From: Corallococcus coralloides
GTDB taxonomy: Bacteria > Myxococcota > Myxococcia > Myxococcales > Myxococcaceae
Direction: 5' to 3' (one strand)
Length of the DNA stretch: 64,000 nucleotides
Assembly: GCF_004104415.1 (NCBI RefSeq)
Contig: NZ_CP034669.1
Positions 3,729-39,993 of this stretch are shown in pieces (the stretch's first letter is position 1; every line of letters starts with the position of its first letter). Position numbers and translations under genes: made by a program. The notes beneath the pieces were generated by a model. It was not told the DNA's origin and searched no databases. It worked only from the letters and a program-made list of their open reading frames with translations.

Positions 3729-6557
3729 ATGCGGATCGCTCCCCAGAATGGCGCGCCTCAACTGTTCGCGCGCACGCGCGCACGCTCCAAACCGGACGGG
3801 AGGCGGGACTTGGCGGAGGTCGCGAGGGGTTTGAAGCTGGAAGTGGAGGCGGACGCCGCGGCCATCGCGGCCCGTGCCGCGGAGGAACTCGTGGAGGCGG
3901 GGCTGACGCCCTTCCACGAGCGGCTCCTCGCCGAGGAACTGCTCGCGCGCAGCGGTGACACGCAGCAGCGGCTGGCGAACGCGCTGGCCGAGGCGAAGGT
4001 GGACCTCAACCCCCACCAGGTCGAAGCCGCGATGTTCGCGCTGGACGCCCTGTCGCGCGGCGGCTGCATGCTCGCGGACGAGGTGGGCCTGGGGAAGACC
4101 ATCGAGGCGGGCCTCGTCATCGCCCAGCTCATGGCGGAGGGAAAAAACCGCATCCTCATCCTCGCCCCCGCGGTGCTGCGCGCGCAGTGGAATGCCGAAT
4201 TGCGCGAGAAGTTCGACCTGGACAGCGTCCTCGTCGACGGCCGCGACGTGAAGAAGCACAACAACTGCTTCGATCAGCCCTTCCCCGTCATCTGCTCGCA
4301 CCCGTTCGCGGCGAACCGCTCCGCGCTCGTGTCGGAGATTCCGTGGGACCTGATCATCATCGACGAGGCCCACCGGCTCCGGAACGCGCACCGTCCCAAC
4401 AACAAGACGGGCCAGGCGCTGCGCGCGTCGCTGGCGGGCCGCCCCAAGCTGCTGCTCACCGCCACCCCGCTCCAGAATGACTTGATGGAGCTGTTCGGCC
4501 TGATGTCGCTGCTGGACGAGCAGATCCTGGGCCCCGAGCACGCCTTCCGCAGCCGCTACCGCGCGGACGAGGGCGGCGGCATGACGGAGGCCGCCGCGTG
4601 CGAGCTCAAGGAGCGGCTGGCCCCGGTGGTGCAACGCACGCTGCGCCGGCAGGTGCGCGAGTACGTCCGCTACACCAACCGCCGCAGCATCGTGGAGGAC
4701 TTCCTCCCCTCCCCCGAGGAGCACGACCTCTACGAGAAGGTCAGTGAGTACCTGCAGCGCTCGGAGGCCGCGGCCATCGAGCCGGGCAAGAAGACGCTCC
4801 TGACGCTGTGCTACCGCAAGCTGCTGGCCTCCTCCACGTTCGCCATCGCGCCCACGCTGCGGCGGCTGTCGGAGAACCTGGAGAAGCGCCTGTCGGCCGC
4901 GCGGCTGGGACAGCAGGCCCTGTCGCTCTTCGAGCCGGAAGAGGCCAGGCAGTTCGTGGAGGAAGGCGAGGAGTGGTCCGACGACCCCGCCAAGGCGCCC
5001 CAGGTCCGCACGCTGGAGCAGGAAGTGTGGGAGCTGCGTCAGTACGCGGACCTCGCGGACTCCATCCGCATCAACGCCAAGGGTGAGGCGCTCAAGCGCG
5101 CCCTGGACCGCACCTTCGCGGTGATGCGCACGCACTCCTGGCCGGAGAAGGCGCTCATCTTCACGGAGTCCAAGCGCACGCAGCAGTACCTCTTCAGGCT
5201 GCTGTCGGAGCACGGCTACAAGGACAAGATTTCGCTCCTGTCCGGCGACGCGGGTGGCACGCCCGAGGAGCGCCGGGCGCTGGTGGAGGAGTTCCGCCAC
5301 AAGACACAGATCCTCATCTGCACGGAGGCCGGCGCCGAGGGCCTCAACCTCCAGTTCTGCAACCTGGTGGTGAACTACGACCTGCCGTGGAACCCGCAGC
5401 GCGTGGAGCAGCGCATTGGCCGGTGCCACCGCTACGGCCAGCAGCGCGACGTGCTGGTGGTGAACTTCCTCAACCGGCAGAACGCGGCGGACGCGCGCCT
5501 GTTCGAGCTGCTGGAGAAGAAGCTCAACCTCTTCGACGGCGTGTTCGGCGCGTCCGACGAAATCCTGGGCGCGCTGGAGAGCGGCGTCGACTTCGAGCGC
5601 CGCGTGCTGGACATCTACCAGTCCTGCCGCGACCCGAAGGACATCAACGTCGCCTTCGACAAGCTGCGCGAGGAGCTGGAGGGCAGCATCAACCAGCGCA
5701 TGACGTCGATGCGCTCGGTGGTGCTGGAGCGCTTCGACGGCGACGTGCGCCGCCGGCTGCGCGTGGCGGGAGACGCGGCCAAGGAGGTCGTGGCCAAACG
5801 CCAGCAGGAGGCGAAGGCGCTCACCGGCTCCGTGCTGGGCAGCCGCACCTCCGGACGGCTCCAGGTGGCCAAGGCCGCCTACGCGGTGCGCGACCGCACC
5901 CAGGACACCGTCAGCTACCTGCAGCTGGACGCGGCGGGGCTCCCCTCGCGGCTGGCGCGGCTGGCCGGCAGCGAGGGCTGGTGGTTCGTCTACAAGTTCG
6001 AGACGACGGGCCTCAAGCCGGAGGAGAAGCTGGTCCACCTGGTGCTGGTGAAGGACCGGGACGGCGGCTTCCGCGCCCTGCCGCTGACGGACGGGGTCCA
6101 CTTCACGAAGCTCGACGCCAAGGAAGAGAAGCGCCGGCAGCCCGCGCCGGTGTCGGTCCAGCTCATGCAAGAGCAGTCGCTCATGACCGCCAAGGATGAG
6201 CTGATTCGGGCCGCGGAACGGCGCAACGCGTTGGAGCTGGACAAGGCCAAGGAGCGCGCGGACCGCTACGTCGAGGACTGCCTGATGGAGTCCCGCGAGG
6301 TGGTGGAGTCCGCCCGCCAGGCGTGGTTCGACGCGCGCAAGGAGGTCTCCGGCATCGAGGACATCGCGGAGCGCGCGAAGGCGCGGGCGCACGCGGACCG
6401 GCAGGAGCGCGACTACCGCCGCAAGCTGGCGTCGCTGCGCAACGAGGAGGAGAAGCGCTACGCCTCCAAGGACCGGCAGATGGCGGAGCTGGCGAACAAG
6501 GCGCGCGTGACGGAGAAGCGCACCCTCATCGCCTCCGCGTACTTCTGGCTGTCGTGA
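3729..6557 (+). CDS. SNF2-family DEAH-box helicase with long C-terminal coiled-coil region
   Basis: ATG at 3729 lies in the frame of track ORF 2712..6557, with GGGAGGA 14 nt upstream. Motifs: ADEVGLGKTIEAG (I), IIIDEAHRLRN (II), LLLTATPLQN (III), and a helicase C-terminal domain (ICTEAGAEGLNLQ...QRIGRCHRYGQ). The N-terminal 339 codons of the track ORF are low-complexity overlap with DUF58 and are rejected. Confidence 0.9.
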   Translation: MRIAPQNGAPQLFARTRARSKPDGRRDLAEVARGLKLEVEADAAAIAARAAEELVEAGLTPFHERLLAEELLARSGDTQQRLANALAEAKVDLNPHQVEAAMFALDALSRGGCMLADEVGLGKTIEAGLVIAQLMAEGKNRILILAPAVLRAQWNAELREKFDLDSVLVDGRDVKKHNNCFDQPFPVICSHPFAANRSALVSEIPWDLIIIDEAHRLRNAHRPNNKTGQALRASLAGRPKLLLTATPLQNDLMELFGLMSLLDEQILGPEHAFRSRYRADEGGGMTEAAACELKERLAPVVQRTLRRQVREYVRYTNRRSIVEDFLPSPEEHDLYEKVSEYLQRSEAAAIEPGKKTLLTLCYRKLLASSTFAIAPTLRRLSENLEKRLSAARLGQQALSLFEPEEARQFVEEGEEWSDDPAKAPQVRTLEQEVWELRQYADLADSIRINAKGEALKRALDRTFAVMRTHSWPEKALIFTESKRTQQYLFRLLSEHGYKDKISLLSGDAGGTPEERRALVEEFRHKTQILICTEAGAEGLNLQFCNLVVNYDLPWNPQRVEQRIGRCHRYGQQRDVLVVNFLNRQNAADARLFELLEKKLNLFDGVFGASDEILGALESGVDFERRVLDIYQSCRDPKDINVAFDKLREELEGSINQRMTSMRSVVLERFDGDVRRRLRVAGDAAKEVVAKRQQEAKALTGSVLGSRTSGRLQVAKAAYAVRDRTQDTVSYLQLDAAGLPSRLARLAGSEGWWFVYKFETTGLKPEEKLVHLVLVKDRDGGFRALPLTDGVHFTKLDAKEEKRRQPAPVSVQLMQEQSLMTAKDELIRAAERRNALELDKAKERADRYVEDCLMESREVVESARQAWFDARKEVSGIEDIAERAKARAHADRQERDYRRKLASLRNEEEKRYASKDRQMAELANKARVTEKRTLIASAYFWLS

Positions 6558-28800: not shown

Positions 28801-30402
28801 CTACGCGTTGCGGCGCACCATGGCCACGTCGTAGTGGCGCTCCGTCACGTAGCCGTTCGCGGCCTTGCCGGGGCGGTACATGTTCCCGGTCTTGTCATCC
28901 ACGTAGAAGCGGTTGTTCGGGTTCGTGTCCCGGCCCGTGCTGGCGTTCTTCGTGCCCGGGTCGTGGAACGTGTAGTAGGTGCGGCCCTTCTCGTCGACGC
29001 CGCGGCCCGTGATGGTCACGAAGTGGTCCGTGAGGCCGTCCGCGTTGTAGCTCGCGTCCTTGTGGCTCACGCCCACGACCACCGGCTTGCCGGCCTCCAG
29101 CTGCTTGTCGATGTAGTTGCGGCCCTCGGCGGCCTTCTTCGAGTCCACCTTCAGCGCGCCGGCGCCGTTCTCGCTCGTGCCCACCTGGATGCGGCGGTCG
29201 GGGCCCAGCACGGTCGCGCCCGCGTCGCGCGACATGGCCGTCGCGGCCTTGAAGCACGCCGTGTCGCTCGCCGTATAGCCGTGGCCGTTCTCGAACTGGC
29301 TGTAGTACGGCACCTTCACGTGCACCGCCGGCTTGTCCTTGGACGGGGCCACCTGCTCCGTGTTCGCGGGGGCCGCCTCCGTGGTGGGCTTGGACGTGTT
29401 CGTGCCCTGGCCTTCCGTGCGGCCCGGCTTCGAGTCGCCGCTCACGGACGGGGGGACCACGCCCGTGTTGGTGTTGGCCGGCTTCGTCGTGGCGCCCGAC
29501 TTCTCCTGCTTCAGCATCGCGAGCGCGTCCTTCGCCTCCGACTTGAAGCGGTTGGCCACGCCCTTCTGCACGTCCTTGGAGCTGCCGGAGAAGTGCACCA
29601 GGGTGCCGTTGCCGTTGGTGCGGCCGCGCTCGGCGTAGATGTCCTTGATGAGCTGCTCGTCGCTCACCTTCGAGGGGTCGCGCCCAGCCAGCGCCTTCTT
29701 GAAGATGTCATCCGCCTTGCCCGGGCCGTGCTGCACGGAGGTGGACCAGGCCACGTCCCGCAGCGCCGCGGAGCGCTTGTCCAGGTCGATGCCCGTCGCA
29801 CTCTTGATGTTGGCGGCGCCCTTGTCGTAGTGCGTGGCCTTGATGTAGTCGTGCTGCGCCTTGTCGAAGCCCTTCGGGTCCTTCGCCGCCAGCTGCTTCC
29901 ACGCGGCGGAGAACTGCGCGGAGCCCGGCTTGCTGCCCGACAGCGCCTGGTGGTACTCCGGGTGCGTCTTCTTCAGCGAGTTGACGAACGACTGCGCAGA
30001 CCCGTTCGCGGAGGCGAACTGGTAGGAGCCGTAGGACACGCCGCCCTTGTCGCCCTTGCCCGTGGACACGGTGCCGGGGCCGCGCGCCTCGTACTTGCGG
30101 CTCAGCCCGCCCAGCTCCCCGGTGGTCGCGCTGCTGGAGGACGTGTTCGTCGCGGGCGTCGTCGCCTTCGCGCCGTCGGTGGCCTGCGTGAAGCTGTCAC
30201 CCGAAGTCTTCGTCCCCGCGCTCGACTTCGTGGTGCCCTTCGTGTCGAAGCCGTCCTGCACCTTCAGCGTCTTGCCGGCCTGGATCTTGTTCGGATCCTT
30301 GATGTTGTTCGCCTTGGCCAGCGCGTCGACGGTCGTGTTGTAGCGCTTCGCGAGGCTGGTAAGCGTGTCACCCGACTTGATGCGGATATTGGAGACGGTC
30401 AC
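28801..30402 (-). CDS. LysM-domain effector-like protein with central unknown domain and C-terminal papain-fold (C39-like) cysteine-peptidase domain
   Basis: N-terminal LysM IRIKSGDTLTSLAKRYNTTVDALAKANNIKDPNKIQAGKTLKV directly at the start (no signal peptide), then a Lys/Thr/Ser/Gly-rich linker and a conserved-looking central domain (GVSYGSYQFASANGSAQSFVNSL...). The C-terminal domain opens VPYYSQFENGHGYTASDTACFKA...DHFVTITG...YTFHDPG, a Cys..His..Asp arrangement like C39-like/CHAP-like peptidases. Local GC is lower than the genome. Confidence 0.78.
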   Translation of the reverse strand: MTVSNIRIKSGDTLTSLAKRYNTTVDALAKANNIKDPNKIQAGKTLKVQDGFDTKGTTKSSAGTKTSGDSFTQATDGAKATTPATNTSSSSATTGELGGLSRKYEARGPGTVSTGKGDKGGVSYGSYQFASANGSAQSFVNSLKKTHPEYHQALSGSKPGSAQFSAAWKQLAAKDPKGFDKAQHDYIKATHYDKGAANIKSATGIDLDKRSAALRDVAWSTSVQHGPGKADDIFKKALAGRDPSKVSDEQLIKDIYAERGRTNGNGTLVHFSGSSKDVQKGVANRFKSEAKDALAMLKQEKSGATTKPANTNTGVVPPSVSGDSKPGRTEGQGTNTSKPTTEAAPANTEQVAPSKDKPAVHVKVPYYSQFENGHGYTASDTACFKAATAMSRDAGATVLGPDRRIQVGTSENGAGALKVDSKKAAEGRNYIDKQLEAGKPVVVGVSHKDASYNADGLTDHFVTITGRGVDEKGRTYYTFHDPGTKNASTGRDTNPNNRFYVDDKTGNMYRPGKAANGYVTERHYDVAMVRRNA

Positions 30403-30595: not shown

Positions 30596-31633
30596 ATGTC
30601 CAGGATCCAACCGGATTTCAAAAGTGTGGCATTGCTGTTTGCCATTTGCGTCACGAGCGCGGTCCCGGAGGCCTCGGCCCAGGGGCCCGAGGGACTCACG
30701 GGGGTCTATTCGAACAAGGGCGGGACGCTGGCCATCGTCGAGGGCAACAACGAGACGCTGGTGCACTTCTCCGGTTCGTTCCCGCAGGGGGAGAGCGCGG
30801 GCACCTGCGATTGCGCCCTGGTCGTCCAGAGGAAGAGCGCGACGAACTGGTCACTTCAGCAGGCGGGCGAGCAGGACGCATGGACGCTGCGCGTCAATCC
30901 CAAGCAGTTCGTGCTGGAGTCCGGTCCGTCACCGTCCTGTTGCGGAGCCGGCTACCCGGGCAAGGACACCTTCGCCCGGAGCACGGCCAGGCCGCTGGGC
31001 ATCTGCAAGGTGAAGGTGTCCAAGGCGGGCTTCCACGCGTCGGACGCGGCCAACACGCCGCGCAAGGCGTTCGTGGTGTCCGGCGACGCGGTGGAGGCCT
31101 ACGTCGACCCGGTGGAGCCGGACTTCCTCGCCGCGCGCTTCCAGGGGCCCCAGAAGGCCACGGCGGGGCTGCTCAAGCGCGAGGACCTGGACTGTGCGGC
31201 GGAGTCCGCGCCCAAGGCCGCCGTGAAGGCCCCCGTGGCCGCGGACAAGCTCCAGCCCTTCGCGGGGACGTGGGTGGAGCTGACGCGGCAGGGCAAGGGC
31301 TTCGTGGTGCTCAAGCCCTGCTCGGCCGCGACGCGCAGCTTCACGGTCAAGCCCGCCACGGGCGAGGTGGAGGTGCAGCTGGGCCAGGAGGCCACGACGC
31401 TGAAGGTGACGTCCGTGGAGCCCGGCAAGGGCGCCGGGGCCTGGGTGCTGGGGCTCACGGCCGCGGACGGCAAGCCGGAGGCGCTCCAATGGAAGACGGC
31501 CGACGCCGCGAAGGGCACCGTGTCCGTGAACAGCCCGGACCTCTTCTCCCAGAGCCACGACTACGTGCGCCAGGAGAAGAAGTCCGCCTTCCCGTCCAAG
31601 CAGGAGACGGGGTGCGACGAGTACGAGCGCTAA
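30596..31633 (+). CDS. secreted hypothetical protein (signal peptide), divergent partner of the LysM effector gene
   Basis: Signal peptide MSRIQPDFKSVALLFAICVTSAVPEASAQ, several Cys pairs (CDC, CCG) and no recognisable domain. Confidence 0.65.
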   Translation: MSRIQPDFKSVALLFAICVTSAVPEASAQGPEGLTGVYSNKGGTLAIVEGNNETLVHFSGSFPQGESAGTCDCALVVQRKSATNWSLQQAGEQDAWTLRVNPKQFVLESGPSPSCCGAGYPGKDTFARSTARPLGICKVKVSKAGFHASDAANTPRKAFVVSGDAVEAYVDPVEPDFLAARFQGPQKATAGLLKREDLDCAAESAPKAAVKAPVAADKLQPFAGTWVELTRQGKGFVVLKPCSAATRSFTVKPATGEVEVQLGQEATTLKVTSVEPGKGAGAWVLGLTAADGKPEALQWKTADAAKGTVSVNSPDLFSQSHDYVRQEKKSAFPSKQETGCDEYER

Positions 31634-32640
31634 CGCGCCCGTGAGCGACGCCGGGCCCGCAGGCCCCCGCCGAGCAGCAGCGCGACGAGCGCACCGGACA
31701 GGGGGCCCCCCCGCGTCGACGGTCCCCGCACCGACAATCCACGCTCTGCAGTTCGATGAGGGATTGGCGCTCCGCCTCTGACTTGCGGTGGCTGGCGATG
31801 TCCGCGAGCTGCTTCTCCTCCTCGCTGCGGATGCGCTTGAGCTCCACGGCGGCCTGGGCCTCCTGGCGTGAGGCGTCCAGCTGGATCTGGATGTTGGTGT
31901 CGATGGCCTCGCGCAGCTTCAGGGCTGTCTTCTCATCGACGGGGGCGATGTCCTTGATGTCGATGTCGATGATGCGCAGCTGGTTCTCGGAGAAGAGGCG
32001 GTCCTTGCGCGCGCGGCCCGCGTCATCCATGCCGAAGATGGCGCGGCGGATGAGCACGCTGGCGTTCTTGTGGAAGGTCTCGAACTCGTTCTCCGCGGCG
32101 ACCTGGCGGATGCGCGACGCGAGGTTCTCACACACGTACCCGATGAAGTCGTTCACCCGGAAGATGGACTTGTCCTTCTCCGGGTCGCCCTGCACGTCGA
32201 ACTGCCACTTGTAGGAAAGCTTGATGCGCAGCCGCGCGTGGTCGCGCGTGGCCACCTCGAACAGATCCGTGGCGAAGTCCGGCCCCAGCCGCAGCATCAG
32301 CACCTTGAGCTGGCGCGGACGCTTGGGCGTGCTGCCGGACAGGTCCAGCACGGTGACGTCCTCGTACGGGCGCAGCATCACCTTCGCGGGGCCGAACTCC
32401 ACGCGCGCGTGGTTGGTCTCGAAGTCGTTGATGAGGACCGCCGTGTTGTCCTCGATGCGCAGCACGATGGCGCGCGTGCGGTCCCCCTTCTCCGTCGCGA
32501 TCATGGGGCGAGGAGCGCGTGAGCACGCGCGGGCCGACTTCCATCAGCACGACGCCGCGGTTGGCGTCTTCGATGTATGCGTACTCGCGGTTCTTCAGGG
32601 AGATGCGCTGGATGGCTTCGGTGCTGGGGGCGGACGGCAT
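31630..32640 (-). pseudogene. major-vault-protein (MVP) repeat / SPFH-shoulder-like protein, read in three frames (two frameshifts)
   Basis: From ATG at 32640: RISLKNREYAYIEDANRGVVLMEVGPRVLT; then in another frame RAIVLRIEDNTAVLINDFETNHARVEFGPAKVMLRPYEDV. Both match the Vault repeat consensus (vRLxPgEyvhVlDxnTgxxRvevGPqtyvL). This is followed by a band-7/shoulder-like domain (IIDIDIKDIAPVDEKTALKLREAIDTNIQIQLDASRQEAQAA), a coiled coil, and in a third frame a hydrophobic tail LSGALVALLLGGGLRARRRSRAR*. Frame changes occur near 32505 (run of Gs) and near 31700-31745 (gggggccccccc run). Confidence 0.55.
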
Positions 32641-32883: not shown

Positions 32884-33114
32884 ATGAAGGCATCGCGACT
32901 GAAGCAGATGGTTCCTGGATTCGCGCTGATCATCGGCATCATGGCGGGCACGGCGCTGGCCATGGTTCCCGGCTCGACGGCGGAGACGAGCGAGAATCAG
33001 ACGTCTGCTGTCCAGATGATCTGTTCCCGCACCTGTAAGCCGTGCTCGACCCAGTTTGAGTGTGGAACGAACGGGGGTTCATGCGGGGTCTGGCGCTGCA
33101 CCAATCCTCAGTAG
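32884..33114 (+). CDS. small secreted cysteine-rich peptide precursor (76 aa, 6 Cys in mature part)
   Basis: MKASRLKQMVPGFALIIGIMAGTALAMVPGSTA|ETSENQTSAVQMICSRTCKPCSTQFECGTNGGSCGVWRCTNPQ*. Its 3' end is the first bases of the tandem repeat unit. Confidence 0.6.
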   Translation: MKASRLKQMVPGFALIIGIMAGTALAMVPGSTAETSENQTSAVQMICSRTCKPCSTQFECGTNGGSCGVWRCTNPQ

Positions 33115-33140
33115 ACACCTGAAAGAAGCGCCCCCATCCG

Positions 33141-33164
33141 CCTCCGAGTCCCAGGGCTCGGAGG
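33141..33164 (+). promoter_or_regulatory. 24-nt palindrome upstream of toxin gene copy 1
   Basis: CCTCCGAGtcccagggCTCGGAGG followed by ctttcc, 22 nt before the ATG. It is conserved in all three repeat units and could act as a hairpin, attenuator or operator. Confidence 0.35.
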
Positions 33165-33185
33165 CTTTCCAATTGTTGCGAAGAG

Positions 33186-34115
33186 ATGGCCATGCGTCTC
33201 CGGACATGCGGTGCCCTTTTGCTGCTGCTCGTTTTCTCGGCCTGCGCCACGACGGAGCCACGCGCCCGTGCGCCAGCGGCCCGCGGCACGAGGGCTGCCA
33301 ACCTCCAACGAGCGGCGGCGCTGCCCTGGAAGGATGATGGGCGGTGCGTTGTCCGCGAGGCGTCCCAGCCTTGGCCCGTGCTGGTGGAGCGGTGCTATCC
33401 GGCGCTCGACCATGACCGCGTCGAGTTCCGTGACACCACGGGAAGATGCACGGTCGCCTCCGCTGCCGCCGCGACCTTGGGAATCGGGTTCTGCGTGCTG
33501 GCGGCCCCTGAAATCGCCGTGGGAGCCGTCATCGTCCTGGGCGTGGTGGTGGTCGGCGTCGCCATCAAGGATGCACTGGATGCGTACGAGTTCCGCCACC
33601 ACTACCCCGAGGAAGCGGGAACCTCACGGGGGACGAAGGTCGCGTCCCGAGATGCCGCAGCGAAGCCGAAGCCCAAGCTGCAACCGGAGCCAGCGGGCCA
33701 GGGCAGACAGCCCCCGGTGCCGCCAGTGCCCGTGGACAGGACGGGCCGCGCCAGCTGCGAGCCTGTTCCCGTGCGTCACGCAGGCGAGGATCGTGCGCAT
33801 AACGAGTGTGCCGATAAGTTTCCGCCCAACCGTTATCCCGGGATGGATGTGCTTGTTGGCGGTGTACGCTTCGATGCGCTGCAAGTCGGTGTCCGCAAAC
33901 TGTGGGAGATCAAGACCCACCAATTCGATTCGTACAATGATTTCATCCGCGACAGGGAAATTGAAAAGGAACTGATTCAACTAGAGAGTGAGCGAAGAGT
34001 CGCTGAGGCTTGTGGATATGACTTCATCGTTGGGGTGAGTACCGAGGCGCACAAAGCGGCGCTGGAGGAACTGGAACCCACTCTCATTATCGTCGTCACA
34101 GGGTGTCAACGATGA
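33186..34115 (+). CDS. lipoprotein polymorphic toxin with C-terminal PD-(D/E)xK-like nuclease domain (copy 1)
   Basis: Lipobox MAMRLRTCGALLLLLVFSAC, a Cys-containing N-domain, a ~35 aa hydrophobic TM hairpin-like segment, a Pro-rich linker, and a C-terminal GMDVLVGGVRFDALQVGVRKLWEIKTHQFDSY (D...E-x-K arrangement of restriction-endonuclease-fold toxins). The last ~60 aa differ between copies. Confidence 0.8.
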   Translation: MAMRLRTCGALLLLLVFSACATTEPRARAPAARGTRAANLQRAAALPWKDDGRCVVREASQPWPVLVERCYPALDHDRVEFRDTTGRCTVASAAAATLGIGFCVLAAPEIAVGAVIVLGVVVVGVAIKDALDAYEFRHHYPEEAGTSRGTKVASRDAAAKPKPKLQPEPAGQGRQPPVPPVPVDRTGRASCEPVPVRHAGEDRAHNECADKFPPNRYPGMDVLVGGVRFDALQVGVRKLWEIKTHQFDSYNDFIRDREIEKELIQLESERRVAEACGYDFIVGVSTEAHKAALEELEPTLIIVVTGCQR

Positions 34116-34867
34116 CTACGCGAAAAAGACTCACTCTCATTGTCTACGGGCCTGCGCTCTTGGTTGACGACAGCCGCCCCGTCGCCATCGTCAATGGGCT
34201 GGAGAAGGCGTTGCCCAGCTTACGACTGGAGTGGGAAGTCGGAGAAGGCGGGCGCCTTATTGCATTGCCACGGCGCGACGAATGGCTCTTGGCGAGCATT
34301 GAGGATGGAGGATTCCCTCTCATATGCAACGGGGACGAGAGTTATCCCGTGACGGTCAATGGAAGGGACCGGTCCGAGCTCTTCAGTCCCGGCGGCCAGG
34401 CCCAATTTGAAGTTCATGCCAAGCTGCCACTCGACGCACCTGTAATCGCTGCAGCGGCGGCTCTGCTTGAGGCCGTGGCGGAAGGGGCTCGTGCGTTCTG
34501 GGGGCACGCGTCGCCGTATGGTTACGGCTCGGAAGTAGCGAAGCAGTTCCGCCGCTCACCGGATGGGCCCGATCTCTCACCCCGTGGGCTTCCCATGCTC
34601 AACCTTCCCCAGAAAAGCCCCAGGCCTGAGACGCCCTATTTCCTGGGGTGGCTGAACTACTGGTCCGCTGCCGCCGCGGAGGTCATCGGGTTCCCGGATC
34701 CTGCTCGCGATGCCGAGCTGCTCTCGCGGGCGCGTCGCACTCCGTCGGGCGGGTGGATCGTGCAGCTCACGGAGACACCGCTCGATTACGACAACCCCCT
34801 GCACGTGGAAGCGCTCAAGCGGACCTATGAGCGCTTCCCGGAGATCGGTGGACGCGAGGGGCCCTGA
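34112..34867 (+). CDS. cognate immunity-like protein (copy 1)
   Basis: ATGA overlap with the toxin stop. The N-terminal ~110 aa are variable between copies and the C-terminal ~130 aa are nearly identical (…WLNYWSAAAAEVIGFPDPARDAELLSRARRTPSGGWIVQLTETPLDYDNPLHVEALKRTYERFPEIGG). Confidence 0.75.
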   Translation: MTTRKRLTLIVYGPALLVDDSRPVAIVNGLEKALPSLRLEWEVGEGGRLIALPRRDEWLLASIEDGGFPLICNGDESYPVTVNGRDRSELFSPGGQAQFEVHAKLPLDAPVIAAAAALLEAVAEGARAFWGHASPYGYGSEVAKQFRRSPDGPDLSPRGLPMLNLPQKSPRPETPYFLGWLNYWSAAAAEVIGFPDPARDAELLSRARRTPSGGWIVQLTETPLDYDNPLHVEALKRTYERFPEIGGREGP

Positions 34868-34989
34868 TGCCCCGTTGCCGTTACCGCGCGTCCGCGCTCA
34901 GCGCCGTGCTTGTCGCGTACTCGGCCGTGACCAGGGCGAGGGCTCCTGCGGGGGGGGTGGCGCTGCACCAACCCGATGTAGACACCTGA
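34867..34989 (+). pseudogene. degenerate remnant of the Cys-rich peptide gene (unit 1/2 junction)
   Basis: tgATG overlap with the immunity stop. It encodes MPRCRYRASALSAVLVAYSAVTRARAPAGGVALHQPDVDT*. Its 3' DNA is homologous to the 3' end of the 32884..33114 gene. Confidence 0.3.
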
Positions 34990-35008
34990 CGGGAAGCATT
35001 CCCATCAG

Positions 35009-35032
35009 CCTCCGAGTCCCAGGGCTCGGAGG
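35009..35032 (+). promoter_or_regulatory. 24-nt palindrome upstream of toxin gene copy 2
   Basis: Identical CCTCCGAGtcccagggCTCGGAGG, 22 nt before the ATG at 35054. Confidence 0.35.
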
Positions 35033-35053
35033 CTTTCCAATTGTTGCGAAGAG

Positions 35054-35983
35054 ATGGCCATGCGTCTCCGGACATGCGGCGCCCTTTTGCTTCTGCTCAT
35101 TCTTTCGGCCTGCGCCACGACGGAGCCACGCCCCAGGGCGTCAGCGGCCCGCGGCACGAGGGCTGCCAACCTCCAACGAGCGGCGGCGCTGCCCTGGAGG
35201 GATGACGGGCGGTGCGTTGTCCGCGAGGCGTCCCAGCCCTGGCCCGTGCTGGTGGAGCGGTGCTATCCGGCGCTCGATCATGATCGCGTCGAGTTCCGTG
35301 ACACCACGGGAAGATGCACGGTCGCCTCCGCTGCCGCCGCGACCGTGGGAATCGGGTTCTGCGTGCTGGCGGCCCCTGAAATCGCCGTGGGAGCCGTCAT
35401 CGTCCTGGGCGTGGTGGTGGTCGGCGTCGCCATCCAGGAAGAATGGGACGCCTATGAGCTCCGCCATCTCTACCCCGAGGAAGCAGGAACCTCACGGGGG
35501 ACGAAGGTCGCGTCCCGAGATGCTGTAGAGAAACCGAAGCCCAAGCTGGAACCGGAGCCAGCGGGCCAGGGCAGACAGCCCCCGGTGCCGCCTGTGCCCG
35601 TGGACAGGACGGGCCGCGCCAGCTGCGAGCCTGTTCCCGTGCGTCACGCGGGCGAAGATGATCCCCATAACGAGTGTGCCGATAGGTTTCCGCCCAACCG
35701 TTATCCAGGGATGGACGTACTTGTGGGCGGTGTACGCTTCGATGCGTTGCAAGTCGGCGCGCGTGTGTTGTGGGAGATCAAGACCCATCAATTTGATTCG
35801 TACAATTCCTATATCCAAAAAAGAGAGATCGCGAAGGAACTCAAGCAATTGGACAAGGAGCGAGCCGTCGCATTGGCATGTGGATATCGCTTCGTTATTG
35901 GGGTGAGCACCCAAGCGCACAAAGACGCGCTACTCGAAGCAGATTCCTCATTCGATGTCGTCGTCACGGGATGCACACGATGA
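35054..35983 (+). CDS. lipoprotein polymorphic toxin, PD-(D/E)xK-like C-terminus (copy 2)
   Basis: 309 aa. It is near-identical to copy 1 through residue ~230, and its C-terminal tail diverges (…YNSYIQKREIAKELKQLDKERAVALACGYRFVIGVSTQAHKDALLEADSSFDVVVTGCTR). Confidence 0.8.
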   Translation: MAMRLRTCGALLLLLILSACATTEPRPRASAARGTRAANLQRAAALPWRDDGRCVVREASQPWPVLVERCYPALDHDRVEFRDTTGRCTVASAAAATVGIGFCVLAAPEIAVGAVIVLGVVVVGVAIQEEWDAYELRHLYPEEAGTSRGTKVASRDAVEKPKPKLEPEPAGQGRQPPVPPVPVDRTGRASCEPVPVRHAGEDDPHNECADRFPPNRYPGMDVLVGGVRFDALQVGARVLWEIKTHQFDSYNSYIQKREIAKELKQLDKERAVALACGYRFVIGVSTQAHKDALLEADSSFDVVVTGCTR

Positions 35984-36735
35984 CCAGACCTGGACGCCTC
36001 ACCTTCATTGTCTACGCGCCTGCTCTCGTGGGTAAAGATGGCCGCACGCTCGATGTCGTCCATGGGATGGAAAGGGCCTTCCCTGGCTTGCGGCTGGCGT
36101 GGCGGCTCTCGGATGGCGGTCGCCCCATCGCGCTGCCGCGACGCGACGATTGGCTCGTGGAAAAGATTGAGGACGGGGGATTCCCCATTGTGTGCAACGG
36201 GGACGAGGGTTACCCCGTGACGGTGATGGGGTGGGGAAGACTGGGAATCCTCAAGCCGGGCGGTCAGCCCCAGTTCGAAGTGCATGCAGAAATGCCTTTA
36301 GACGAGCCAGTGATCGCGGCGGCGGCGGCCGTGCTTGAGGCCATGGCGGAGGGAGCACGCTCATTCTGGGGCCACGCGTCGCCGTATGGTTACGGCTCGG
36401 AAGTAGCGAAGCAGTTCCGCCGTTCGCCGGACGGACCTGAGCTCTCCCCCCGTGGGCTTCCCATGCTCACCCTTCCCGAAAAGAGCCCCAGGCCGGAGAC
36501 GCCCTCTTTCCTGGGCTGGGTGAACTATTGGTCCGCTGCCGCCGCGGAGGTCATCGGGTTCCCCGATCCTGCTCGCGATGCCGAGCTGCTCTCGCGGGCG
36601 CGTCGCACTCCGTCGGGCGGGTGGATCGTGCAGCTCACGGAGACACCGCTCGATTACGACAACCCCCTGCACGTGGAAGCGCTCAAGCGGACCTATGAGC
36701 GCTTCCCGGAGATCGGTGGACGCGCGGGGCCCTGA
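35980..36735 (+). CDS. cognate immunity-like protein (copy 2)
   Basis: ATGA overlap. Its N-terminus diverges (MTRPGRLTFIVYAPALVGKDGRTLDVVHGMERAFPGLRLAWRL...) and its C-terminus is identical to copy 1. Confidence 0.75.
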   Translation: MTRPGRLTFIVYAPALVGKDGRTLDVVHGMERAFPGLRLAWRLSDGGRPIALPRRDDWLVEKIEDGGFPIVCNGDEGYPVTVMGWGRLGILKPGGQPQFEVHAEMPLDEPVIAAAAAVLEAMAEGARSFWGHASPYGYGSEVAKQFRRSPDGPELSPRGLPMLTLPEKSPRPETPSFLGWVNYWSAAAAEVIGFPDPARDAELLSRARRTPSGGWIVQLTETPLDYDNPLHVEALKRTYERFPEIGGRAGP

Positions 36736-36848
36736 TGCCCCGTTGCCGTTACCGCGCGTCCGCGCTCAGCGCCGTGCTTGTCGCGTACTCGGCCGTGACC
36801 AGGGCGAGGGCTCCTGCGGGGGTGTGGCGCTGCACCAACCCGATGTAG
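36735..36848 (+). pseudogene. degenerate remnant of the Cys-rich peptide gene (unit 2/3 junction)
   Basis: MPRCRYRASALSAVLVAYSAVTRARAPAGVWRCTNPM* retains the GVWRCTNP C-terminus of the intact peptide gene. Confidence 0.3.
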
Positions 36849-36875
36849 ACACCTGACGGGAAGCATTCCCATCAG

Positions 36876-36899
36876 CCTCCGAGTCCCAGGACTCGGACG
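36876..36899 (+). promoter_or_regulatory. palindrome variant upstream of toxin gene copy 3
   Basis: CCTCCGAGtcccaggaCTCGGACG, a slightly degenerated copy. Confidence 0.3.
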
Positions 36900-36920
36900 C
36901 TTTTCAATTGTTGCGAAGAG

Positions 36921-37850
36921 ATGGCCATGCGTCTCCGGAGCTGCGGCGCCCTTTTGCTTCTGCTCGTTTTCTCGGCCTGCGCCACGACGGAGCCACGCCC
37001 CAGGGCGTCAGCGGCCCGCGGTAAGAGGGCTGCCAACCTCCAACGAGCAGCGGCGCTACCCTGGAAGGATGATGGGCGGTGCGTTGTCCGCGAGGCGTCC
37101 CAGCCCTGGCCCGTGCTGGTCGAGCGGTGCTACCCGGCACTCGACCATGACCGGGTCGAGTTCCGCGACACCACGGGAAGATGCACGGTCGCCTCCGCTG
37201 CCGCCGCGACCGTGGGAATCGGGTTCTGCGTGCTGGCGGCCCCTGAAATCGCCGTGGGAGCCGTCATCGTCCTGGGCGTGGTGGTGGTCGGTGTCGCCAT
37301 CCAGGAGGAATGGGACGCATATGAACTGCGCCACCACTACCCCGAGGAAGCTGGGACCTCACGAGGGACGAAGGTTGCGTCCCGAGACGCTGTAACGAAG
37401 CCGAAGCCCAAGCTGGAACCGGAGCCAGCGGGCCAGGGCCGGCAGCCCCCAGTGCCGCCTGTGCCCGTGGACTGGACGGGCCGCGCCAGTTGCGAGCCTG
37501 TTCCCGTGCCTCACGCGGGCGAAGATGATCCCCATAACGAGTGTGCCGATAAGTTTCCTCCCAACCGTTATCCAGGGATGGACGTACTTGTGGGCGGTGT
37601 ACGCTTCGATGCGCTGCAAGTCGGCGTGCGCAAACTGTGGGAGATCAAGACCCACCAATTCGATTCATATAACGCCTTTGTCCAGGATCAGGAGATTGCG
37701 AAGGAAGTGATACAACTGAAGAAGGAGCGAGCTGCCGCAGCGGCATGTGGATACGACTTCGTCGTGGGGGTGAGTACCCAAGCGCATAAAGACGCGCTAC
37801 GCGAAGAAGTTCCCGCGATCGATGTCGTCGTTACGGGGTGTGCACGATGA
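36921..37850 (+). CDS. lipoprotein polymorphic toxin, PD-(D/E)xK-like C-terminus (copy 3)
   Basis: 309 aa, with a third variant of the C-terminal tail (…YNAFVQDQEIAKEVIQLKKERAAAAACGYDFVVGVSTQAHKDALREEVPAIDVVVTGCAR). Confidence 0.8.
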   Translation: MAMRLRSCGALLLLLVFSACATTEPRPRASAARGKRAANLQRAAALPWKDDGRCVVREASQPWPVLVERCYPALDHDRVEFRDTTGRCTVASAAAATVGIGFCVLAAPEIAVGAVIVLGVVVVGVAIQEEWDAYELRHHYPEEAGTSRGTKVASRDAVTKPKPKLEPEPAGQGRQPPVPPVPVDWTGRASCEPVPVPHAGEDDPHNECADKFPPNRYPGMDVLVGGVRFDALQVGVRKLWEIKTHQFDSYNAFVQDQEIAKEVIQLKKERAAAAACGYDFVVGVSTQAHKDALREEVPAIDVVVTGCAR

Positions 37851-38608
37851 CCAGGCGGAGAGCCCTTACCCTTATCGTCTACGCGCCTGCGCTCATGGGT
37901 AACAACAGCCGCACAGTCGCCGTCGTCCATGGGATGGAGAAAGCGTTCCCCGGCCTACGCCTGGAGTGGAAACTAGATGAAGGCGGGCGCCCCATTGCAT
38001 TGCCACAGCGCGATGCATGGCTCTTGGCGAGCAACAAGGACGGTGGATTCCCAATCGTGTGCAACGGCGATGAGAGTTACCCCGTGACGGTCTGGGGAAT
38101 GGAAAGCTCAGGCATCCTCAGCCCAGGCGGTCAGGCCCAGTTTGAAGTCCACGCAAAGCTGCCCTTGGACGAGCCTGTAATCGCGGCAGCGGCGGCTCTG
38201 CTTGAGGCCGTGGCGGAGGGGGCACGTTCATTCTGGGGGCACGCGTCGCCGTACGGCTACGGCTCGGAAGTCGCGCAGCAGTTTCGCCGATCACCGGACG
38301 GACCTGAGCGTTCCCCTCGTGGGCTTCCCATGCTCAAGCTTCCAGAGACACTCCCAGCGCCTGAGATTCCCTGTTTCCTCGGGTGGCTGAACTATTGGTC
38401 CGCGGCAGCCGCGGAGGTCATCGGGTTCCCGGATCCTGCTCGTGATGACGAACTGCTCTCGCGGGCACGCCGCACTCCGTCGGGCGGGTGGATCGTGCAG
38501 CTCACGGAGACTCCGCTCGATTACGACAACCCCGTGCACTTGGACGCGCTCAAGCGGGCCTACGAACGCTTTCCAGCAATCGGCGGGCGCACAGCGCCTT
38601 TGCCCTGA
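37847..38608 (+). CDS. cognate immunity-like protein (copy 3)
   Basis: ATGA overlap. N-terminal variant (MTRRRALTLIVYAPALMGNNSRTVAVVHGMEKAFPGLRLEWKL...). Confidence 0.75.
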   Translation: MTRRRALTLIVYAPALMGNNSRTVAVVHGMEKAFPGLRLEWKLDEGGRPIALPQRDAWLLASNKDGGFPIVCNGDESYPVTVWGMESSGILSPGGQAQFEVHAKLPLDEPVIAAAAALLEAVAEGARSFWGHASPYGYGSEVAQQFRRSPDGPERSPRGLPMLKLPETLPAPEIPCFLGWLNYWSAAAAEVIGFPDPARDDELLSRARRTPSGGWIVQLTETPLDYDNPVHLDALKRAYERFPAIGGRTAPLP

Positions 38609-38614
38609 AACAGG

Positions 38615-38650
38615 ACAGCCGCCCGTCACCTCTCCGGCGCGGGCGGCTGT
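38615..38650. terminator. GC-rich hairpin between convergent genes (bidirectional terminator candidate)
   Basis: ACAGCCGCCCG-x14-CGGGCGGCTGT is an 11-bp stem, located between the immunity copy 3 stop (38608) and the rdgC 3' end (38667). Confidence 0.45.
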
Positions 38651-38666
38651 TCCATCAATCTCCCAC

Positions 38667-39993
38667 TCAGCCCCGGGCAGCGCGGGCGTCACGGCCCTTG
38701 GCGCGGGCGGCCTTGGAGAGCAGGTCGCTCCCCTTCTCCTCGCCCTTCATCCACGCCTTCAGCGCGGGCACCACCTGCTTGCTCCAGGCGCGTCCGGCGC
38801 GCACGGCCAGGAAGTCCTGCACCAGCGCGTCCACGATGGCGGAGAGCTGCTCGGTCAACTCCAGACGCTCGGAGAGCTGATCATCCTCTTCCTCCGTCAT
38901 GAGCGCGGGCAGCTTGGCGGCGCGAATGTCCAGGAACTCGGAATCCAGCGTGACTTCGTATTCGCGCTCGCCGTGCGAGATGCGCAGCCGCGCCTGGGAC
39001 ACCAGCAGGCCCCGGTCCAGCGAGTGGCGCACGTTCTCCGAATACGGCGCCAGCGTGCCCTTGGCGCTCATCTCCGTGACGTCGCCGGCCACGCCGCGCA
39101 GCACCACCTTGCCCAGGTAGAGCACCACGACGCCCGCGCCGTCGTGCTCGACCAGCGGGTCGCCCGACTCCGAGCGCCACAACAGCCAGGTCATGAACTC
39201 GCGGCCCAGGTAGGCCCGGCCGCGCAAGAGCTGTTCGCGCGCCTTGCCCTTTTCGACTTCGGCTTCGTCCTTCTCCTCCTCCGTGGCGGCACCATCCACG
39301 CCGACATCGCCCCGGGCGAACGCCGCCTCTTCCCTCGCCTGCTCACGCCTCGCCATGGGTGTCCTCCACCGAAGCCGTCGCCGGCAGGTCCATGCCAATG
39401 AGCTCCGCCGTGGGGCCCAGGGCCTTCTCGTCGATGCCCGCGCGCTGCGCCATGGACGCGGGCGTGATGCCAATCACCTTCACCGCGAGGGCGCCTTCCA
39501 GCGCCACGCAGATCTCATCCACCGTCTTGCGCGACGCGGCCCAGACCTGCACCGTGTGCGTCTTCAGGTTCCACGTCACGTCCAGCGTGCTGGTGCGCGG
39601 CACCGCGCGCTGACGCAACAGCTGCTTGAGCTCCGCGCGCTGCTTGTTCTTCTCCGCGCGCGCGGGCGGCCGGCCGTTCTCCTTGCCGAAGGCGGCGGCC
39701 CACTTGTCCAGCTCCGACTTCATCATCGACGCGGGCACCTTCAGCGTGTCGATGCGGAAGGAGAACAGGGCGTACTCGCCATAGAAGAGGTTGCCGGTGG
39801 CGAACTCGGAGGACTCCGGGTTCTCCAGCTCGACAAACCCTGCGGCGCGCTCCTCCTCGGAGCGGCGGTCGATGGGCTCGAACGCATGGGACTTGAGTCC
39901 CTTGGTCATCCAGCGCTTCACGTCGGACGGCGCATCCTTGGCCGGCTCGGTCCGGAAGCGCGAAAAGGTCACGGCACCACGTAGGACAGGCAT
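38667..39993 (-). pseudogene. rdgC: recombination-associated protein RdgC homologue, split into two overlapping frames
   Basis: The N-terminal two-thirds (39343..39993, MPVLRGAVTFSRFR...ELKQLLRQRAVPRTSTLDVTWNLKTHTVQVWAASRKTVDEICVALEGAL) and the C-terminal third (38667..39356, ...MTWLLWRSESGDPLVEHDG...LSERLELTEQLSAIVDALVQDFL) each align with consecutive parts of RdgC. They lie in different frames and overlap at 39343-39356. Confidence 0.6.

Follow-up and report, generated by a model that had tools for sequence, protein, structure and literature searches.

Three tandem toxin-immunity cassettes in Corallococcus coralloides, probably of the SitA/SitI type, with TseT-like and Imm52-like predicted folds

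What is the function of three tandem gene pairs, each consisting of a lipoprotein gene and an overlapping partner gene, in the genome of Corallococcus coralloides? The array lies on the plus strand of a stretch of 64,000 nucleotides from contig NZ_CP034669.1 (assembly GCF_004104415.1), which is referred to here as the window. The initial annotation, made from the letters of the DNA, read the pairs as lipoprotein nuclease toxins and their immunity proteins, compared them to the SitA/SitI toxins that myxobacteria deliver to kin, and considered that the toxin might represent a new family. Our analysis argues that the locus comprises three polymorphic toxin-immunity cassettes, probably of the myxobacterial SitA/SitI type, in which toxin and partner are predicted to adopt the folds of a structurally characterized effector and its immunity protein.

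The repeat search reveals three direct copies in register at 33083..34950, 34951..36817 and 36818..38608 (units 1, 2 and 3), with spacings of 1868 and 1867 bp, in agreement with the period of about 1867 bp reported initially. The array ends at 38608 rather than at 38700 as first annotated, and no fourth copy of the cassette is present anywhere in the 64-kb window. Each unit presents an open reading frame (ORF) for a protein with a lipobox (toxin 1, 33186..34115; toxin 2, 35054..35983; toxin 3, 36921..37850), followed by the ORF of the partner (immunity 1, 34112..34867; immunity 2, 35980..36735; immunity 3, 37847..38608). At all three junctions the ATG of the partner overlaps the TGA of its toxin gene as ATGA, as had been noted. 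Toxins 2 and 3 are defined by ORF, Pfam and paralogue alignment. Counted from the first ATG, each toxin has 309 residues, the length given in the initial annotation; the actual protein probably has 307, with its start at the second methionine (33192 in toxin 1), because the majority of homologues begin there and a Shine-Dalgarno-like element (GAAGAG) is found 7 nt upstream. Two of the partners have 251 residues and the third has 253, where a range of 251 to 254 had been given. The three toxins share 86-87% protein identity and the three partners 79-80%.

The N-terminal part of the toxin is that of a lipoprotein. A type II signal peptide with its lipobox (LVFSA-C20; 33186..33245 in toxin 1) occurs in the array in the variants L-V-F-S-A-C and L-I-L-S-A-C, and C20 is invariant in 39 homologues. 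SitA proteins are sorted by a rule that admits neither Lys at position +2 nor Ala at +7 (PMC5562445). Toxin 1 has Ala at +2 and Arg at +7; in a set of 60 proteins the lipobox is found in 57, with Ala at +2 in 56 and Thr in one, never Lys, and the +7 residue is S, R, G, P, L, T or I, never Ala. The conserved N-module that follows (residues ~39-107; 33300..33506) has low entropy and the pattern NLQRAAxLPWxDxGxC...ERC...C...C, in which C54, C70, C88 and C103 are invariant; it is a candidate escort or delivery domain. Residues 91-127 are hydrophobic in the array toxins and had been interpreted as an internal transmembrane hairpin. A conserved hairpin was rejected, because in divergent relatives the first arm carries D, E or R together with an invariant Cys of the N-domain, and only residues 110-127 (IAVGAVIVLGVVVVGVAI; 33513..33566) are kept as a very hydrophobic helix. 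A single transmembrane helix, with a Kyte-Doolittle 19-residue mean of up to 2.7, is thus the more likely arrangement. Between this helix and the C-terminal domain runs a disordered Pro/Lys-rich linker (residues 128-190; 33567..33755) with a predicted local distance difference test score (pLDDT) of 27-39, which is the most variable region of the toxin (mean p-distance 0.53). The lipobox, the Cys-containing N-domain, the hydrophobic stretch, the Pro-rich linker and the FDAL...LWEIKT motif of the C-terminal domain, all listed in the initial annotation, are present and conserved in the 39 homologues.

The C-terminal domain is assigned by Pfam to DUF6310 (PF19829) at residues 184-307 in all three copies (E about 1e-57, 190-193 bits, cut-off 27). 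In the AlphaFold model, which was built on the 39 homologues, residues 190-309 are confident (pLDDT 84-93) and the elements succeed one another in the order alpha-beta-beta-beta-alpha-beta (helix 203-211, strands 221-224, 227-233 and 238-243, helix 252-275, strand 279-284). Within this domain (33756..34112 in toxin 1), D230, E241 and K243 of the FDAL...LWEIKT motif are invariant in the 39 homologues and are retained also in other, distant architectures; they are the putative catalytic residues. The top fold matches of the model are all PD-(D/E)xK enzymes: TseT-type chains (Foldseek probability 0.99 against 9oz0_B), and after them XisH, AF1548, NucS, restriction enzymes and the PD-(D/E)xK CdiA-CT toxins. 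Model and fold matches thus agree on the restriction-endonuclease fold that had been proposed, and the predicted domain shares the three-dimensional fold of TseT. Two conserved Cys pairs, C191/C276 and C208/C307, are found in the domain, and one pair is lost together in a single homologue (P0365). The differences between the three toxins are concentrated at residues 251-309. These observations support DUF6310 as a TseT-like PD-(D/E)xK toxin domain with presumed nuclease activity. Of the restriction-endonuclease toxin profiles called for in the initial annotation, PF15648 (Tox-REase-5) does not match the toxin in the Pfam search, which extended to E 1. When PDB sequences were searched with a profile, the matches were at chance level only, TseT not being among them; NCBIfam yields no family for the toxin, and there is no PADLOC match.

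The partner is DUF5953 (PF19378) in all three copies (E about 1e-113, 376-398 bits, cut-off 25), and it has no signal peptide. Its structure model (predicted template modelling score 0.81) has the same fold as TsiT/PA3908. At the level of sequence, Imm52 (PF15579) matches below threshold (E 0.056-0.058, 13 bits where the cut-off is 25) in copy 2, at E 0.058, and in three of 46 homologues; the top PDB sequence match in a profile search is 4rho (E 0.36), NCBIfam yields no family, and UniRef labels some homologues 'Immunity protein 52' or 'DUF3396'. These data support DUF5953 as an Imm52-like immunity protein, which would neutralise its toxin. Tox-REase-5 and Imm52 are documented as partners (bioRxiv 10.1101/835710), and here the separate fold matches of toxin and partner point independently to the two chains of one solved effector-immunity complex. 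In PADLOC the partner matches PDC-M17B, a candidate defence protein (E 0.0056), and this match was rejected as too faint to serve as the basis for a defence-system call.

Both families are large, with at least 900 clusters at 90% identity for the toxin and at least 1493 for the partner. The named relatives are nearly all from Corallococcus, Myxococcus, Pyxidicoccus, Stigmatella, Archangium, Cystobacter, Hyalangium and Vitiosangium, with several copies per genome, and all 77 loci that we compared come from genera of the Myxococcus/Archangium lineage (Myxococcaceae/Archangiaceae), a range compatible with TraA/TraB-dependent transfer and killing. The DUF5953 gene lies directly 3' of the DUF6310 gene in every one of these loci, mostly with overlap of start and stop codons. 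In about 13 of them the toxin gene is truncated or frameshifted while the partner gene is intact. Tandem arrays occur elsewhere too: one locus has three cassettes (L024), another has two (L038).

Modularity is a further property of the toxins. In an exhaustive profile search, DUF6310 also turns up as the C-terminal domain of longer proteins whose N-termini are eCIS_core/DUF4157, transglutaminase-core or CBM2 domains, and the module of transmembrane helix, linker and DUF6310 recurs in proteins without a signal peptide. Conversely, the lipoprotein N-module with its helix is joined to Ntox16, to a 65-aa domain with six cysteines, to an HExxH-like domain and to others. Among 60 intact pairs, the toxin domain and immunity residues 1-100 co-vary in their distances (r 0.5-0.6), as do the regions within the N-part (residues 21-190; r 0.6-0.66); N-part and toxin-domain distances barely correlate (r 0.1-0.2), the two evolving independently. 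Polymorphic toxins follow this logic, in which the carrier is conserved, the warhead can be exchanged and the antidote is matched to it. Strict pairing, modularity and the three alleles described below support the toxin-immunity reading and the restriction-endonuclease fold, and the toxin-immunity architecture of the initial annotation is supported by the 77 adjacent pairs and by the decayed toxin genes beside intact partners.

The six-cysteine variant is common among these relatives. A domain of about 65 residues (…W.ERC..HYVRC…GES.CQ.C…C.R.G.WP.E….PCPG) replaces DUF6310 at 5001-6295 of a metagenome contig (L079) and in proteins P0398, P0405, P0412, P0415, P0420, P0440, P0457 and P0473; its gene is followed by one for an unrelated helical protein of 187 residues with no Pfam match, and the two may be an undescribed toxin-immunity pair. 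Further C-termini on the N-module, seen in metagenome proteins P0281, P0397, P0332, P0274/P0330 and P0336, include Ntox16 (E 4.6e-06), an HExxH-like HEMAHTCGWDH domain and two more unannotated domains.

Comparison of the units with each other and with related loci provides insight on how the array arose. The same locus is present in five other Corallococcus genomes (L001, L002, L056, L075 and L078) with one cassette each. Its flanks are 94-96% identical to those of the window, while the cassette proteins are only 73-86% identical. The description of the three units as near-identical holds for the flanks and not for the variable core, which comprises toxin residues ~250-309 and partner residues 1-100: the toxin N-halves are 94-99% identical among the units, as are the immunity C-terminus and junction of units 1 and 2, whereas the cores share 66-80% DNA identity and are three distinct alleles. 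In unit 1 the core carries the allele found in the lone cassette of Corallococcus sp. CA049B (L078; 92-98% DNA identity). That of unit 2 is nearest to the allele of C. interemptor AB047A (L002), at 85-88%, compared with 66-72% to units 1 and 3, and the core of unit 3 is a third allele with no close match among the compared loci. The end of immunity 3 and the sequence downstream match L078 at 91% and 75%, which units 1 and 2 do not, and by this comparison the 3' end of unit 3 is the native end of the locus. Between the three copies, the shared flanks show a synonymous divergence (dS) of about 0, and the core one of 0.5-1.3; such a mosaic argues for recombination or imported alleles, and against divergence in situ or simple duplication followed by drift. 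The last eight codons of a small gene upstream (GVWRCTNP) mark the left edge of the repeat, and their remnants at 34952-34975 and 36819-36842, retained at each junction, mark the duplication breakpoint. Units 1 and 2 share, at 98% identity, an 83-bp segment between the immunity stop codon and this remnant (34868-34950 and 36736-36817), to which nothing corresponds in 81 related loci or in the sequence after unit 3. As the co-varying regions differ among the three cassettes, this strain carries three 'barcodes' where its relatives hold one. The locus is a clean natural case of growth of a toxin 'barcode' through exchange of cores between conserved flanks.

The composition of the array is atypical. 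Its G+C content is 64.3%, compared with 70.3% for the remainder of the window, and the G+C content at third codon positions (GC3) is 0.70-0.75 (0.57 in the toxin C-domain), compared with 0.87-0.98 in the flanking genes. The lower G+C content on which horizontal acquisition had been proposed is therefore real; the toxin has no relatives in the plasmid and phage collections searched, and these give no direct evidence of a mobile element.

How would such a toxin act? In the mechanism that we propose, the protein would be made with a type II signal peptide and lipidated at Cys20, and would pass between kin most likely by TraAB-dependent outer-membrane exchange. The N-module and the transmembrane helix would carry the nuclease over the inner membrane of the recipient, where the C-terminal PD-(D/E)xK domain, a distant structural relative of TseT, would act as a DNase. 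The partner, a distant relative of TsiT that is translationally coupled and predicted to be cytoplasmic, would bind and block its own toxin, with specificity most likely residing in the last ~60 residues of the toxin and the first ~100 of the immunity protein. Recipients without the matching immunity gene would suffer DNA damage.

Several points weigh against this account. The 18-residue helix should be a stop-transfer signal, which would leave the nuclease on the cytoplasmic side of the producer's own inner membrane. The count of Lys plus Arg, 0 before the helix and 2.6 after it, predicts the same N-out/C-in topology, which is at odds with Lol sorting to the outer membrane; judged by its sorting residues the protein would go to the outer membrane, where SitA proteins localise, and judged by its helix it would be retained in the inner membrane. 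Outer-membrane exchange is known to transfer proteins of the outer and not of the inner membrane. The conserved Cys pairs of the toxin domain would suit an oxidising compartment. At the sequence level the kinship to TseT and TsiT is invisible or marginal: toxin and partner both fall below the Pfam thresholds for Tox-REase-5 and Imm52, and the kinship rests on predicted structures. Finally, the ratio of nonsynonymous to synonymous divergence (dN/dS) between the three copies never exceeds 1 in any region where dS is above 0, and hence the data give no direct indication of positive selection.

The recurrence of helix, linker and DUF6310 in carriers that are not lipoproteins suggests that the helix belongs to the entry mechanism of the warhead. 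We tentatively propose, as an idea that is more doubtful than the assignment of the locus itself, that the toxin module carries its own device for entry through the inner membrane, consisting of the helix and the Pro-rich tether upstream of the nuclease; the helix would insert into the inner membrane of the neighbour and, with no need of a host receptor, draw the nuclease through into the cytoplasm. Killing by one published lipoprotein toxin, SitA7, depends on TraA and TraC, and a saturating resistance screen found no envelope entry factor for it (PMC8546572); the proposal is compatible with both results. If the idea holds and our family is that of SitA7, it would explain the outcome of the screen, and it would raise the question of how a lipoprotein exported by Sec with a helix of stop-transfer grade gets to the outer membrane. 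The helix between carrier and warhead bears on how the inner membrane is crossed, and is the one feature that might merit experiments by a specialist.

Is the family, then, that of SitA7? From genome position we consider this likely. For strain DK1622, PMC13310138 Table S4 lists as SitA7 genes MXAN_6560 and an ORF without annotation, '598.5', between MXAN_0598 and MXAN_0599. The complete genome of Myxococcus virescens, a species closely related to M. xanthus, measures 9.196 Mb and has a DUF6310/DUF5953 cassette near 8.057 Mb (fraction 0.876), about 10 genes from a TonB-dependent receptor that lies on its lower-coordinate side. MXAN_6560 stands at 0.873 of the DK1622 locus tags, which we take to number roughly 7,500, and MXAN_6547 is a TonB-dependent receptor, a resemblance to the neighbourhood of the M. 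virescens cassette. At least three DUF6310 loci, including a tandem pair, are present in Myxococcus fulvus HW-1, from which the tested sitAI7(Mf1) allele was taken and in which LILAB_04570 and LILAB_04580 are candidates for sitA7(Mf1). The published description of SitA7 is that of a 'predicted DNase' that is non-modular, has no AHH domain and lacks SitB; the lack of both AHH and SitB fits. Against the assignment, it is not proven, because the records of M. virescens and DK1622 are assumed to be collinear, with the same origin and orientation. Literature searches found no discussion of MXAN_6560 and its neighbouring genes, and no mention of DUF6310 or DUF5953. Since the family is large, already in Pfam and linked by position to SitA7, a new family is improbable, contrary to what had been considered initially. 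The locus is a new allele set and a tandem expansion of an already known type of myxobacterial kin-discrimination weapon.

Two other published types were excluded. SitA6 consists of a PF09533 toxin and a PF09535 immunity protein (PMC12077181), and neither PF09533/DUF2380 nor PF09535 (CXXCG) is matched here in Pfam or NCBIfam. SitA4 and SitA6 both carry AHH nuclease domains, and the AHH domain (PF14412) has no match in the window toxins. A SitA6-type cassette (PF09533 with PF09535) does occur in M. virescens (CP183923.1; L081 16925-18337), about 7 kb from the DUF6310/DUF5953 cassette, indicating that toxin loci cluster in that region of the Myxococcus chromosome.

The biology could be the same and the family nonetheless a further Sit-like one, defined by the four-Cys N-module and the transmembrane helix and outside the six published SitA families. 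The N-part of about 180 residues is short compared with the SitA escort domains of ~375 aa (PMC8546572), which also counts against the SitA7 assignment; rare relatives bear Ntox16, six-Cys or other C-termini while SitA7 is described as non-modular; no Myxococcus xanthus protein is found among the 360 listed homologues; and, as seen above, the toxins carry neither PF09533 nor AHH. We regard this as a real but minor possibility, given the position of the M. virescens cassette, the loci of M. fulvus HW-1 and the fit of the SitA7 description, to which we add that a screen aimed at lipoprotein toxins would probably not have overlooked so large a family. The topology puzzle leads to a different and still less probable explanation, in which the toxins are bitopic inner-membrane lipoproteins with a periplasmic N-domain and a cytoplasmic nuclease, and are not exchanged through the outer membrane; the pair would then be a membrane-tethered toxin-antitoxin or abortive-infection-like module acting in cis, or would be spread by vesicles or lysis. 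The very hydrophobic single helix with its positive-inside bias, an immunity protein without signal peptide, the faint partner match to PDC-M17B and the helix-linker-DUF6310 proteins without signal peptide all speak for it. It is made improbable by the conservation of a lipobox with outer-membrane sorting residues in 57 of 60 proteins, by an N-module that acts as the carrier of various toxin domains including Ntox16, by the use of DUF6310 in secreted toxins of the DUF4157 type, by allele arrays and orphan immunity genes that typify conflict between strains, and by a toxin without PADLOC match; and if the family is SitA7, killing that depends on TraA and TraC has already been shown.

Least probable by far is that these are ordinary duplicated housekeeping lipoproteins with a conserved partner and no toxin function. 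Synteny of the locus in several Corallococcus species and dN/dS below 1 would be expected from such a family. The same syntenic loci, however, combine nearly identical flanks with divergent cassette proteins and vary from one to three copies at one site; many unlinked copies occur per genome, toxin genes decay beside intact partners, and nuclease and immunity folds come with foreign codon usage. The preferred interpretation remains that of three SitA/SitI-type cassettes.

Upstream of the array, at 32884..33114 on the plus strand, lies the small gene whose tail is found at the junctions. Its 76-residue product has a signal-like N-terminus and six cysteines in its C-terminal half (…CSRTCKPCSTQFECGTNGGSCGVWRCTNPQ), a low GC3 (0.77) and no Pfam match, and could be a small secreted peptide. 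Only at three syntenic loci in Corallococcus (L002, L056 and L078) does an orthologue directly precede the cassette, and for this reason a family-wide, SitB-like accessory role was rejected. About 20 nt upstream of each toxin start, RNA folding reveals a GC-rich 11-bp hairpin (GCCUCCGAGUC…GACUCGGAGGC) followed by UUUCC, at 33140..33165, ~35008-35033 and ~36875-36900 on the plus strand (fold z-scores -2.5 to -3.0), which may act as terminator for the gene before it, or as an element of the 5' untranslated region or of processing. Terminator-like sites are not above shuffled expectation, and the sigma-70 promoter scan found none. On the minus strand, 31455-32640 is the remnant of a homologue of the bacterial major vault protein, with Vault_3 and MVP_shoulder domains; it retains residues 1-41 and 342-601 of the 755-aa CA049B protein at 98-100% identity, which indicates that the gene underwent internal and C-terminal deletions right beside the expanded array; the array itself lies between this remnant and an RdgC-like gene. 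Further away on the same strand (28801-30402), a 533-aa protein with an N-terminal LysM and a T6SS_VgrG3-like_C domain of the peptidoglycan-hydrolase type (E 1e-52) may be a secreted cell-wall-degrading enzyme; its gene is conserved at the syntenic CA049B locus.

Comparison with known systems sets the locus in context. With SitA toxins in general the window proteins share the lipobox with outer-membrane sorting residues, an N-terminal carrier, a C-terminal nuclease domain and a downstream immunity gene in the operon. SitA toxins have a disordered stretch after the lipobox (PMC8546572), and the SitA/SitI outline of the initial annotation is borne out in this feature also, together with the +2 Ala, the absence of Ala at +7, the multiple loci per genome and the taxonomic range; a search of PMC8546572 for a transmembrane helix in SitA toxins found none mentioned. 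SitA7 has in common with our family the absence of sitB, the many loci per genome and the restriction to Myxococcus, Corallococcus and Archangium. SitA3(Mf1) is likewise a myxobacterial lipoprotein toxin with a TseT-type warhead, PF15648 (PMC8546572, Fig. 3 legend); it differs in belonging to another escort family and in carrying the PF15648 match that the window toxins miss.

Outside the Sit toxins, DUF4157 at the N-terminus is known to mark carriers of C-terminal toxins (PMC8213781). The DUF4157 (eCIS_core) toxins found here carry the same DUF6310 warhead, usually after a hydrophobic helix and a Pro-rich linker; they have no lipoprotein signal, and their N-terminal carrier is not that of the window toxins. 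The PD-(D/E)xK CdiA-CT toxins with their CdiI proteins (for example PDB 4zqu, 4g6u and 4g6v) match the toxin model much more weakly than TseT does, use a two-partner secretion route, and have immunity folds unrelated to those of our partners. The closest structural counterpart is TseT-TsiT of Pseudomonas aeruginosa (PA3907-PA3908; PDB 7dym and 9oz0), in which TseT is a Tox-REase-5 DNase effector of the type VI secretion system and TsiT its Imm52 immunity protein. Both folds are alike at only 7-16% identity, and the window proteins miss both Pfam thresholds. TseT is delivered by PAAR, a chaperone and a type VI secretion system, whereas the window toxins have a Sec/lipoprotein signal, the four-Cys N-module and the transmembrane helix, and the four paired cysteines conserved in DUF6310 are a further difference from TseT. 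DUF6310 and DUF5953, two large Pfam families without known function, thereby gain a supported functional reading, and the TseT-like toxin domain and Imm52-like partner connect this family of myxobacterial lipoprotein toxins with a type VI secretion effector-immunity pair whose structure is solved.

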